In this document: in pieces, positions 1-4,453 of the stretch
How positions within the stretch are numbered: the first letter of the stretch is position 1
Layout of the letters: each line of letters starts with the position of its first letter
Virus record (IMG/VR): IMGVR_UViG_2778261005_000009
Direction: 5' to 3' (one strand)
DNA length: 5,452 bases
Origin: a virus
Lineage: Duplodnaviria > Heunggongvirae > Uroviricota > Caudoviricetes
Program-made: the position numbers and the translations under genes
The notes under the pieces: model-generated
What the model saw: the letters and a program-made list of their open reading frames with translations, nothing else
What the model was told of the DNA's origin: nothing
Databases searched by the model: none

Positions 1-546
1 GAAAAACGAGTATTTTTAGTCATCCTGTTTACCTCTTTCTCAGGGAGTTTAGTCTCCAGGATTTCCGGGGCGGTTCACCTGGACGGCCTGAGCGAACCGA
101 TCGGGAAATTTTCGATGACTACTGTCTGGCAGCCGTCGCCGGATTTTCGACAACGGGCAGCAGTGTGGGGTATGGCTCTGCCTGAGCCGGAATTTACACC
201 TGCTGAGCTTGCCGCATTCCGGGATTACTGGATGGCGGAGGGGAAGGTTTTCACGCAGGTTCAGTGGGAGCAGAAATTTGCCCGCCACGTGCAGCACGTC
301 AGGGCACAGGTAAAACCAGTCAGCAAGGGGGGAAGCCATGCAGCATCAGGTGGCACGGCATCACGGGCAGTTCAGGAAATCCGGGCTGCACGCGAACAGT
401 GGGAACGTGACAACGGATTTATCAGCAACGGAAACGGCCTGGAAGCTGTGGGAGCTCATGGGGGAGGTGTATTCGAACCGCTGGACTCAGAAGAACGGGG
501 CCGCACCTTCGAAGCTCTGGATTGCCCAGATTGGTGCGATGACTGA
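1..546 (+). CDS. DnaT-like primosomal / replication protein, 5'-truncated (frame open from base 1)
   Basis: Frame 1 has no stop from base 1 to TGA at 544-546. The translation (..VHLDGLSEPIGKFSMTTVWQPSPDFRQRAAVWGMALPEPEFTPAELAAFRDYWMAEGKVFTQVQWEQKFAR..) matches the C-terminal domain of E. coli DnaT as I recall it (..[44 protein letters not shown]..). The similarity extends upstream of the ATG at 115, so the true start lies outside the window. The 3' boundary is uncertain because the ORF overlaps the P-like frame. Confidence 0.7.
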   Translation, partial: EKRVFLVILFTSFSGSLVSRISGAVHLDGLSEPIGKFSMTTVWQPSPDFRQRAAVWGMALPEPEFTPAELAAFRDYWMAEGKVFTQVQWEQKFARHVQHVRAQVKPVSKGGSHAASGGTASRAVQEIRAAREQWERDNGFISNGNGLEAVGAHGGGVFEPLDSEERGRTFEALDCPDWCDD

Positions 547-2592: not shown

Positions 2593-2691
2593 AGGCGATA
2601 AACCAACTAACAACTAAATACTGAAGATTTAAATCAGAAACGATTTTTATTAAATCCTTAACCGGAGGGATTCCTGCACCCTCAGAACATC

Positions 2692-2713
2692 AGGAGGCCG
2701 CCCGAAAGGGCGG
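2692..2713 (+). promoter_or_regulatory. SD-proximal hairpin: AGGAGG followed by a 6-bp GC stem with GAAA tetraloop, upstream of ATG 2720
   Basis: AGGAGG at 2692-2697; stem CCGCCC (2698-2703) / GGGCGG (2708-2713) with loop GAAA. Linear SD-to-ATG distance is 22 nt, but the folded hairpin would bring the SD to about 6 nt from the start. It could instead act as a weak terminator for the upstream operon, though no U-tract follows. Confidence 0.35.
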
Positions 2714-2719
2714 TAAGAA

Positions 2720-2938
2720 ATGAAACATTATTTAGAAAAAAATTACCCACGAAAGAGCAGAACAACAGAGTTTCTGTTTTTCATTCTGTTTATAGTGTTG
2801 ATGATACCGATATCCCCGCTATTACTGGTCTGGATAATTGGAAGGACATTTGAACCAGTTATTGAGCTATATACCGATGTGACATGGGAATCATTCAGCG
2901 CACTGCACAATAAAATTAATCCGTATAAGGAAAACTGA
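2720..2938 (+). CDS. Small single-pass membrane protein (72 aa) in an AT-rich insert
   Basis: ATG 2720, stop TGA 2936-2938. Predicted TM segment FLFFILFIVLMIPISPLLLVWIIG. The region 2600-2940 is markedly more AT-rich than its flanks, suggesting a separately acquired cargo gene. The stop overlaps the SD/start of the next gene. Confidence 0.5.
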   Translation: MKHYLEKNYPRKSRTTEFLFFILFIVLMIPISPLLLVWIIGRTFEPVIELYTDVTWESFSALHNKINPYKEN

Positions 2939-2939
2939 T

Positions 2940-3612: not shown

Positions 3613-3630
3613 TGCTGCGGGTGCTTGAGG
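3613..3630 (+). promoter_or_regulatory. 5' element of hok mRNA complementary to its 3' end (tac/fbi-like long-range pairing, 5' partner)
   Basis: tgctgcgggtgcttgagg (3613-3630) pairs antiparallel with cctcaacgcacccgcg (3993-4008): 6 bp, a one-nucleotide bulge (C3999), then 10 bp including one G-U. Confidence 0.45.
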
Positions 3631-3664
3631 CTATCTGCCTCGGGCATGAACACCAACGGCAGAT

Positions 3665-3739
3665 AGAGAAAAGCCCCAGTTAACATTACGCGTCCTGCAA
3701 GACGCCTAACATTAATCTGAGGCTCAATCTATGAACGGC
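3665..3739 (-). ncRNA. Putative Sok-like antisense RNA (type I antitoxin), about 75 nt
   Basis: Minus-strand sigma70-like promoter (below) would start transcription near + coordinate 3739. The transcript is antisense to the upstream in-frame ATG (3731) and its SD (GAGG 3719-3722). It ends in a terminator-like structure on the minus strand: outer stem ccucag/cugggg (3717-3722 with 3674-3679, one G-U), inner stem gcguc/gacgc (3690-3694 with 3701-3705), then U-tract cuuuucucu (+ 3665-3673). Ends are approximate. Confidence 0.4.
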
Positions 3740-3745
3740 AAATCT

Positions 3746-3774
3746 AGGTTAGCCTCTTACGTGCCGAAAGGCAA
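3746..3774 (-). promoter_or_regulatory. Candidate promoter of the Sok-like antisense RNA
   Basis: On the minus strand: -35 TTGCCT (+ coordinates 3774..3769), 17-nt spacer, -10 TAACCT (3751..3746). The -35 overlaps the hok SD region on the opposite strand. Confidence 0.35.
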
Positions 3775-3787
3775 GGAGAAGCAGGCT

Positions 3788-3943
3788 ATGAAGCAGCAAA
3801 AGGCGATGTTAATCGCCCTGATCGTCATCTGTTTAACCGTCATAGTGACGGCACTGGTAACGAGGAAAGACCTCTGCGAGGTGCGAATCCGAACCGGTCA
3901 GACGGAGGTCGCTGTCTTCGTAGACTACGAATCTGAGAAGTAA
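3788..3943 (+). CDS. hok: Hok/Gef-family type I toxin (51 aa membrane peptide)
   Basis: ATG 3788 preceded by AGGAG (3774-3778) at 9-nt spacing; stop TAA 3941-3943. Product MKQQKAMLIALIVICLTVIVTALVTRKDLCEVRIRTGQTEVAVFVDYESEK aligns along its length with plasmid R1 Hok ([52 protein letters not shown]) and is very close to chromosomal HokD/RelF as recalled. The track ORF 3731..3943 is an in-frame upstream extension (ATG 3731), possibly a mok-like leader reading frame. Confidence 0.9.
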   Translation: MKQQKAMLIALIVICLTVIVTALVTRKDLCEVRIRTGQTEVAVFVDYESEK

Positions 3944-3992
3944 GAGACCAGGCGGGGGAGTAATCTCCCGCCACCTCTGATGTGTCAGGCAT

Positions 3993-4062: not shown

Positions 4063-4407
4063 ATGAAAAAGGTATTGATTGCAGCACTTATTTCCGGTGT
4101 GTCTTTTGGCGCTTTTGCACAGCAGGGTGGTTTCCAGGGGCCAGAAGCAGAGCGTTCAACAGTAGCGCAGGCAAAAGAACTGAAGGATGATGCATGGGTT
4201 ATCCTTGAAGGGAGCATCGTTAAAAAAGTGGGTGATGAACGTTATGAGTTTCGTGACAATAGCGGGACAATTGTCACGGATATTGATGACAGCGTATGGG
4301 CCGGGCAGAATGTTTCTCCGAAAGACAAAGTAAGAATTGAGGGTGAAATTGATAAAGACCTGAGCAGTGTTGAAGTTGATGTAAAGGCACTGAAATTATT
4401 AAAGTAA
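4063..4407 (+). CDS. YgiW/YdeI (BOF, bacterial OB-fold) family periplasmic protein with signal peptide (114 aa)
   Basis: ATG 4063 preceded by AGAGGA (4051-4056) at 6-nt spacing; stop TAA 4405-4407. N-terminal signal peptide MKKVLIAALISGVSFGAFA followed by QQGGFQGP, then C-terminal IVTDIDDSVW...VRIEGEIDKD...VEVDVKALKLLK, which matches the BOF/YgiW pattern. Confidence 0.88.
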   Translation: MKKVLIAALISGVSFGAFAQQGGFQGPEAERSTVAQAKELKDDAWVILEGSIVKKVGDERYEFRDNSGTIVTDIDDSVWAGQNVSPKDKVRIEGEIDKDLSSVEVDVKALKLLK

Positions 4408-4424
4408 CCGCCCCTGCTTGTTAA

Positions 4425-4453
4425 GCCCGTCTTACTGACGGGTTTTCTGTTTG
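4425..4453 (+). terminator. Rho-independent terminator downstream of the YgiW/BOF-family gene
   Basis: Stem GCCCGTC (4425-4431) / GACGGGT (4437-4443), loop TTACT, followed by a T-rich tract (ttttctgtttg), 18 nt after the stop codon. Confidence 0.8.

Follow-up and report, generated by a model that had tools for sequence, protein, structure and literature searches.

How is a gene translated when its only apparent Shine–Dalgarno (SD) sequence lies 22 nt from the start codon, with a stable hairpin in the space between? This question is raised by a 5,452-nt stretch of phage DNA, here called the window (IMG/VR record IMGVR_UViG_2778261005_000009, Caudoviricetes), in which a gene of the DUF4014 family (2720–2938, plus strand), encoding a single-pass membrane protein of 72 aa, follows an intergenic region of 127 nt. 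This region (2593–2719, plus strand) extends from the stop codon of a 103-aa gene (TAA, 2590–2592) to the DUF4014 start and is the sole long gap among early genes that otherwise abut or overlap. The answer favoured here, with a confidence somewhat above even, is that SD, hairpin and ATG form a split ribosome-binding site (RBS), that this site is a portable cassette, and that it is also a recombination joint. Judged by comparison of its copies, the SD–hairpin–ATG unit is a portable intercistronic cassette ahead of at least five unrelated genes, and not a property of DUF4014.

The SD sequence, AGGAGG at 2692–2697 on the plus strand, runs directly into a hairpin (H2, 2697–2714, plus strand) whose stem pairs C2698–C2703 with G2708–G2713 (CCGCCC/GGGCGG) across a GAAA loop at 2704–2707; the stem counts 6 bp, or 7 bp if extended by G2697:U2714. 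The rest of the 22 nt that separate the SD from the ATG at 2720 (2698–2719) is the leader TAAGAA (2714–2719, plus strand), a spacer between stem and start codon that lacks any SD-like sequence, so that these six nucleotides offer no alternative SD at canonical distance. Neighbouring genes of the window have their SD 7–10 nt from the start. With the hairpin lying wholly between SD and AUG, and no proximal SD, the arrangement is that of a split RBS, in which H2 would reduce the effective spacing to 5–6 nt here and to 6–9 nt in other copies. Two further hairpins lie upstream on the same strand. H1 (2665–2683) pairs GAGGG (2665–2669) with CCCTC (2679–2683) across a 9-nt loop, with an energy of −7.2 kcal/mol and a pair probability of 0.42–0.70, and H0 (2626–2656) is a weak AT-only hairpin or palindrome (GATTTAA 2626–2632, TTAAATC 2650–2656; about −2.9 kcal/mol). 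The positions that a first-pass annotation, made from the sequence alone, had assigned to the AGGAGG, the stem at 2698–2713 with its GAAA loop, the 22-nt spacing and the GAGGG/CCCTC hairpin are all exact.

H2 has a predicted energy of −14.4 kcal/mol and a pair probability of 1.0 in all four sequence contexts in which it was folded. Among the 20-nt local hairpins of the window it ranks first in stability (−15.5 kcal/mol, compared with minima of −9.7 to −12.9 kcal/mol in 10 shuffled windows), and it is less stable on the minus strand (−12.6 vs −15.5 kcal/mol). The annotation had proposed that the hairpin brings the SD into range only when folded. The first part of this idea stands, as the SD is out of canonical range, the hairpin fills the excess exactly and bacteriophage T4 provides a precedent; the conditional part does not, because a stem of −14 kcal/mol with a pair probability of 1.0 should be folded all the time. 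Therefore, H2 should be constitutively folded and is not a plausible switch. In the mechanism proposed here, H2 would be folded essentially always, looping out 16–18 nt, and a 30S subunit anchored on AGGAGG would find the AUG at an effective distance of about 5–6 nt plus the width of the helix. The cassette would stand at intercistronic junctions of the long early operons (pR or pL) of lambdoid phages of the E. coli group, and would provide the sole SD for the small accessory gene downstream. We infer that initiation does use AGGAGG as its SD and is helped, not hindered, by the hairpin.

Other roles for this stretch were considered and rejected. H2 is not an intrinsic terminator: it is followed by TAAGAAATG, no variant carries a T-run, and a scan of 2593–2960 found no promoter-like or terminator-like site. 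A hidden small open reading frame (ORF) through the element was also discarded, as there is no ATG, GTG or TTG in it, the CTG after GGAGGG is not present in every variant, and the H1 loop has 1-nt indels that disrupt any frame. Rfam covariance models run over the whole window with E values up to 1 matched nothing at 2593–2720; their sole match was sok, at 3619–3793.

The genes that follow the cassette were surveyed in 127 fetched instances. The commonest, at 56 loci, is DUF7167, an acidic protein of about 60 aa, whose ATG stands 7 nt from the stem. A DUF551-like family follows at 24 loci (with a stem-to-ATG distance of 9 nt at 21), DUF4014 at 20 (6 nt) and a 43-aa ORF at five (8 nt). In these four families the leader after the cassette lacks an SD, and in families other than DUF4014 it reads TAGTTAA, TAATGAAAA or AACAGATA. 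A leader with its own GGAG occurs in one family only (6 loci), the one that starts farther from the stem, at 11 nt. In six annotated phages a gene start always falls directly after the match to the element, each time that of a different gene, and the upstream genes differ too.

The unit also occurs without the remainder of the intergenic region. In a short form it consists of the upstream stop TAA, TGTC, (A/G)GGAGG, the hairpin, 6–7 nt and the ATG, and this is the entire gap of 34–38 nt before DUF4014 or DUF7167 at no fewer than 35 loci. A further case is phage ArgO145 (KY914478.1, 7430–7090, minus strand; L142 among the loci labelled here), in which a 70-aa gene (ending in ...NEAMSYHND) splits the element. 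Its 5′ half ends in an ordinary SD, TGGAGG, 7 nt before the 70-aa gene; its 3′ half, after the stop codon of that gene, reads TGTC-AGGAGG-H2-TAGTTAA-ATG, the ATG being that of DUF7167. Since the 3′ half in ArgO145 and the short-form loci carry SD, H2 and ATG without the rest, the unit is, on the evidence of these loci, self-standing.

The full element measures about 100 nt and comprises, in this order, a 5′ edge, H0, a core (AATCCTTAACC-GGAGGG), H1, a variable linker, AGGAGG, H2, a short leader and the ATG. A covariance model built from 54 distinct variants matches it at 2609–2727 (plus strand) with 124 bits and E=2e-22. The 5′ edge of the commoner form (type I) is CTGAATAATTAA, which has stops in all three frames (window 2621–2632; L006, L003 and others), and the main upstream gene family ends at one of these stops. 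About 75 bp across both hairpins match independently in phage genomes, with 85–97% identity, beside unrelated genes.

With a 106-bp query the element was found in 2653 of 5426 complete E. coli genomes, in up to 7 copies per genome, and a 17-mer anchor recovered more than 120 IMG/VR contigs; the Rac prophage copy of E. coli K-12 does not carry it. When one genome per species was searched for the motif of SD plus hairpin, the only species to show it were E. coli, Shigella flexneri and Citrobacter braakii; one more occurrence lies on a 3-kb contig of a Collinsella sp. metagenome-assembled genome (L141), which holds a full E. coli prophage element followed by DUF7167 and is probably a binning contaminant. 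In PP818812.1 (L003), named 'Actinobacillus phage vB_Apl-pPE4' with Actinobacillus pleuropneumoniae as its host, the element is present at 96% identity among typical E. coli lambdoid genes, DUF4014 included, and the host attribution looks doubtful. In C. braakii (L140) and in L062, a convergent gene of 184 aa (starting MNKINVLGVIIKHYK...) ends about 11 nt from the hairpin. Five matches in unrelated contexts were set aside as chance: two to the 17-mer anchor in IMG/VR (L041, L044) and three to the SD-plus-hairpin pattern in genomes (L132, L135, L136), the latter being GC hairpins, two of the three followed by a T-rich run.

Near-identity among copies could also arise in DNA alone. The element would then have no RNA function and be a DNA 'linker', kept near-identical by repeated homologous recombination between lambdoid phages or by recent spread, as might be suggested by copies that are 85–100% identical, by genes that reassort freely on either side and by its confinement to E. 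coli, Shigella and Citrobacter. The pattern of substitution speaks for RNA. Across the 54 variants the stems are kept and the GGAG core of the SD does not change in any of the 54, while the H1 loop and the linker between H1 and the SD vary. RNAalifold recovers H1 and H2, and the structure described above has 92.9% of its cells paired, as against 34–53% when the partners are slid by 1–3 columns. In H1, 99% of cells are paired and G.U pairs are the sole variants, although its 5′ arm lies inside the search anchor, which biases its invariance; in H0 there is one swapped pair, A-U vs U-A, in 38 vs 14 sequences. H2 has 96% of its cells paired and one fully compensated pair. Most of its changes are C-to-U in the 5′ arm, where 20 distinct sequences thereby have a U.G wobble, and the 3′ arm has a single G-to-A; a change of G2697 to A retains the pair with U2714, and one G:C is replaced by A:U. 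Such strand-asymmetric changes fit an RNA of the plus strand. With almost no G-to-A in the 3′ arm, a weaker fold on the minus strand, variable loops and linkers next to constant stems and GGAG, and downstream genes that lack an SD of their own, a functionless linker is highly doubtful.

A number of observations weigh against the split RBS, and the first concern the strength of these same signals. Covariation is weak (term −0.23) because the copies are 85–100% identical, and the variants are not independent events. About 14 of the 43 variant cells in H2 break a pair. The identity of the loop is not strictly kept either, since the variant GGCA is not a GNRA loop and single TAAA and AAAA loops occur. 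Others concern the SD: in the thermodynamic ensemble AGGA is only 10–35% unpaired and can pair with UCC(U) at 2655–2658, and RNAalifold finds a 3-bp UCC:GGA helix. These predictions would favour an inhibitory hairpin, in which an SD held 22 nt off and partly paired to UCC keeps the level of small, possibly toxic proteins low, and the DUF4014 product is indeed a membrane protein. Such inhibition is nevertheless quite unlikely, as the commonest downstream gene, DUF7167, encodes a small, acidic, soluble-looking protein, and the same layout reportedly increases initiation in T4; moreover, the UCC:GGA pairing spans just 3–4 bp and is invariant, which makes covariation uninformative about it.

The remaining points against a split RBS come from the surroundings of the cassette. 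In four fetched copies no start codon stands directly after the hairpin, which is followed by the convergent gene in L140 and L062 and by a gap of 77 nt in L134 and L138; given these copies, the element can persist, or function, without initiating translation. In addition, a split RBS alone does not explain the conservation of the other 60 nt or so (H0 and H1). These features fit a rival reading in which the hairpins mainly act on the polycistronic early RNA in some other way, for instance by stabilising it, blocking its processing or making transcription pause. Recombination at the element's end would in that case explain why start codons lie next to the hairpin, and translation of the downstream genes would begin weakly or by reinitiation. 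The right-hand homology joint does fall exactly at the end of H2, and the sequence immediately upstream has the AU-richness often seen at RNase E sites. Stems of the H1 and H2 type are, on the other hand, too short for RNase III; no terminator was found in the scan, no variant has a T-run after the stem, and the unrelated genomes that do combine the same hairpin with a T-run look quite different. There is no Rfam family match, and a stabilising, processing or pausing role leaves unexplained both the invariant GGAG and the leaders of 6–9 nt without SD in four families. Such a role is considered unlikely.

A GC stem with a GAAA loop could also serve as the operator of an RNA-binding protein, which might be a repressor of translation or a factor of the N type acting at a boxB-like site. 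H2 superficially resembles the lambda boxB (GCCCU GAAAA AGGGC), UCCUUAAC has a faint likeness to boxA, and two copies of the element are found in one pL operon of ArgO145. There is no boxA consensus, however, and 34 nt separate the hairpin from the boxA-like stretch; the place of the element deep in the operon, after replication or ea22-like genes, is unlike that of nut sites, it is common to phages with differing immunity and antitermination modules, and Rfam has no match for it. An operator is thus very improbable, and a lambda-type nut site (boxA/boxB) was rejected, by inspection only, for its missing boxA consensus, wrong spacing and wrong operon position.

The split RBS leaves the origin of the longer element to be accounted for, and ArgO145 suggests one. 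The AATCCTTAACCGGAGGG core of the window (2653–2669, plus strand) has as its ArgO145 counterpart AATCCTGAACTGGAGG, the ordinary SD 7 nt before the 70-aa gene. Because of this counterpart, the core looks like a vestigial SD here, now forming the 5′ arm of H1. The full element has the look of two initiation regions that fused once the 70-aa gene had been lost, with H1 folding up the orphaned first SD.

The same comparisons bear on the cassette as a recombination joint. Each of the two main upstream gene families occurs with four or more different downstream genes, among them DUF4014, DUF7167, the family with its own GGAG and the DUF551-like family, and the sequence type of H0 tracks the upstream gene family. 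This reassortment of upstream and downstream genes, together with the H0 types, indicates crossovers inside the conserved core, a pattern that fits a boundary sequence for swaps of accessory genes. The near-identity of the cassette between phages would make it a crossover point for exchange of the downstream gene. More tentatively, and with less confidence than even chances would give, the cassette may be a self-contained, mobile and universal initiation adaptor of lambdoid phages that combines an upstream translation stop, a strong SD insulated by a clamp hairpin and a preferred crossover point. Gene expression and mosaic evolution would in that case be tied together by a single short RNA element.

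The first-pass annotation had described the region as an AT-rich insert and read its composition as the mark of a separately acquired cargo gene. GC content is 0.380 in 2593–2939 vs 0.514 window-wide, and the lowest stretch of that size in the window (0.375) starts at 2597, so that the reported drop between 2600 and 2940 is real; the fall is gradual on the left, where the upstream gene (2281–2592) is already at 0.449. The DUF4014 gene itself has a GC content of 0.356 vs 0.48–0.51 in its flanks. The composition does not bear this reading out: in all six phages checked, tightly embedded copies included, DUF4014 is at 0.36–0.40 and its flanks at 0.45–0.51. Therefore, the dip is a trait of the DUF4014 family and no sign of recent insertion here.

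The related prophages whose comparison the annotation had called for give a more precise picture. mEp460 and Rac-SA53 have the upstream gene and the element in common with the window, followed by a different gene, and their homology with the window ends at GGGCGGTAA, just before the ATG; that of ArgO145 ends at the DUF4014 stop codon. By these joints the DUF4014 ORF is a discrete mosaic module, so the notion of an insert holds for the ORF, while the SD and hairpin that had been counted as part of it belong to a separate conserved element.

The module theory of lambdoid phage mosaics reportedly goes back to Susskind and Botstein, and morons and gene-boundary 'linker' sequences in these mosaics are said to have been described by Juhala et al. 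in 2000. The DUF4014 module resembles such morons and linkers in its deviant composition, in its exact start and stop bounds and in its reassortment at a conserved boundary; it has deviant GC and is absent from between the same neighbours in mEp460 and Rac-SA53. Unlike morons, it has no promoter or terminator of its own detected and is read within the early operon. As a classical moron it was therefore rejected, given that no such signals were detected in 2593–2960 and that its stop codon (TGA, 2936–2938) adjoins the next ATG at 2940, with one base between.

The DUF4014 product matches PF13198 over its whole length (residues 1–72 on model positions 1–72; E=1e-24, 87.2 bits vs a cut-off of 23.2) and PHROG 1832 with E=1e-44. 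It has one hydrophobic segment only, at about residues 17–41 (nt 2768–2842); the net charge is +4 at the N-terminus and −2 at the C-terminus. It is probably an inner-membrane protein with its N-terminus inside and its C-terminus outside. The annotation was right about the single membrane helix and not about a soluble C-terminal tail: the AlphaFold model (predicted local distance difference test score 81) has a helix at 14–28, a proline kink and a helix at 32–66, so that in this model the 'tail' is a continuation of the helix and not a globular domain. The protein shares with its family both the end-to-end model match and the C-terminal LHNK-NPY motif, the nearly invariant F..LHNK(I/L)NPY(K/R)E reading F..LHNKINPYKE here.

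The family is found only in prophages and phages of Escherichia, Shigella and Salmonella, with homologues in 127 phage records that include 933W (L0067), VT2-Sakai, epsilon15 (gp46), epsilon34, g341c (gp23) and ES18 (gp39). In most members the gene follows closely on the one before it and has an ordinary SD, and the cassette precedes a subset only; in 933W, epsilon15, g341c and pPE4, DUF4014 adjoins the preceding gene and has a GGAG-type SD 5–7 nt from its start. The finding of the cassette says nothing yet on what DUF4014 does. Three names are attached to the 72-aa family, 'released from the phage upon host infection' (PHROG 1832, RefSeq), 'sugar acetyl transferase inhibitor' and 'O-polysaccharide acetyltransferase inhibitor', and none of them could be traced to an experiment. 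The sole member with a proposed role is epsilon15 gp46, a putative O-antigen acetyltransferase inhibitor, a name that survives only in record notes. Full-text literature searches gave no matches for DUF4014, for the hairpin sequence or for either acetyltransferase-inhibitor name, and the PADLOC defence models matched neither DUF4014 nor its neighbours. Small phage proteins that alter the O-antigen, the Gnarl proteins, have been described (PMC12373910); DUF4014 motifs are not in the supplements of that paper.

A lambdoid prophage of E. coli O157:H7 shares 99.8% identity with the window as a whole, whose genes all lie on the plus strand. They comprise, in order, a replication O/DnaT-like fragment, P, DUF1627, a helix-turn-helix protein, two small hypothetical genes, the DUF4014 ORF, DUF551, hok/sok, a gene of the BOF/YgiW family, a hypothetical gene and DUF968; the window is an early-right (nin-type) region, read from pR. 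The O/DnaT-like gene at its left end (window 1–120; L001 4810–6076) is annotated as truncated; the reference strain has a copy of IS1203 adjoining it, and there are strains whose matched region is interrupted by IS1203. Downstream of DUF4014 there is a complete toxin-antisense locus of the hok/sok type (3619–3943; Rfam sok at 105.6 bits and a Hok/Gef Pfam match), followed by a strong hairpin at 3952–3971 (−14.0 kcal/mol). The BOF/YgiW-family gene (4063–4445) has a low GC content (0.438, and 0.37 at third codon positions) and gaps on both sides, and the sole terminator-like hairpin with a T-run within the scanned region lies at it, at 4423–4445. As a true moron, this gene is a stronger candidate than DUF4014.

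Split RBSs with a hairpin between SD and AUG have been textbook curiosities from a few T4 genes, and searches of the full-text literature under several names for the arrangement returned work on T4 and thrS only, with none on lambdoid or temperate phages. If the reading favoured here is correct, the cassette would be by far the most widespread natural split RBS, carried by E. coli O157:H7 and Shiga toxin (Stx) phages among others, and one that moves between genes. Gene callers and RBS scorers would misjudge such starts because the SD is 22 nt away. The cassette could be used as a compact, context-insulated part for translation, and would provide a concrete case of a conserved boundary sequence for the exchange of accessory genes in lambdoid phages.

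The closest known system is that of T4 genes 38 and 25 (Gold 1988; Nivinskas et al. 1999; Malys and Nivinskas 2009; summarised in PMC3014915 and PMC7297116). There, hairpins cut the distance between SD and AUG from 22 to 5 nt in gene 38 and from 27 to 11 nt in gene 25, bringing the SD into range, and destabilising mutations reduce initiation (PMC3014915). The T4 gene 37/38 junction, read directly, is TAAGGAG-AGGGGC UUCG GCCCUU-CUAAAU-AUG (−16.7 kcal/mol). It shows the same order as the window, namely upstream stop, SD, abutting GC stem with a tetraloop, 5–6 nt and AUG, and the distance of 22 nt from SD to AUG is common to gene 38 and the window. Both sites are intercistronic and have similar folding energies (−16.4 in the window vs −16.7 kcal/mol in T4), with a tetraloop, GAAA in the window and UUCG in T4, on a GC-rich stem of 6–8 bp. 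The sequence of the lambdoid hairpin is unrelated to that of T4, and its hosts are temperate lambdoid phages and not T-even phages. The T4 cases are each tied to one gene and the lambdoid unit, known here from its sequence, is portable, standing before at least five unrelated genes. A second precedent is the split RBS of E. coli thrS (Sacerdot et al. 1998, cited in PMC7297116 and PMC3936740), with which the cassette would share a ribosome that accommodates a stable hairpin within its binding site and does not unfold it. In thrS, however, the hairpin is a protein operator upstream of a normally spaced SD, whereas that of the window, for which there is no known ligand, lies between the SD and the AUG.

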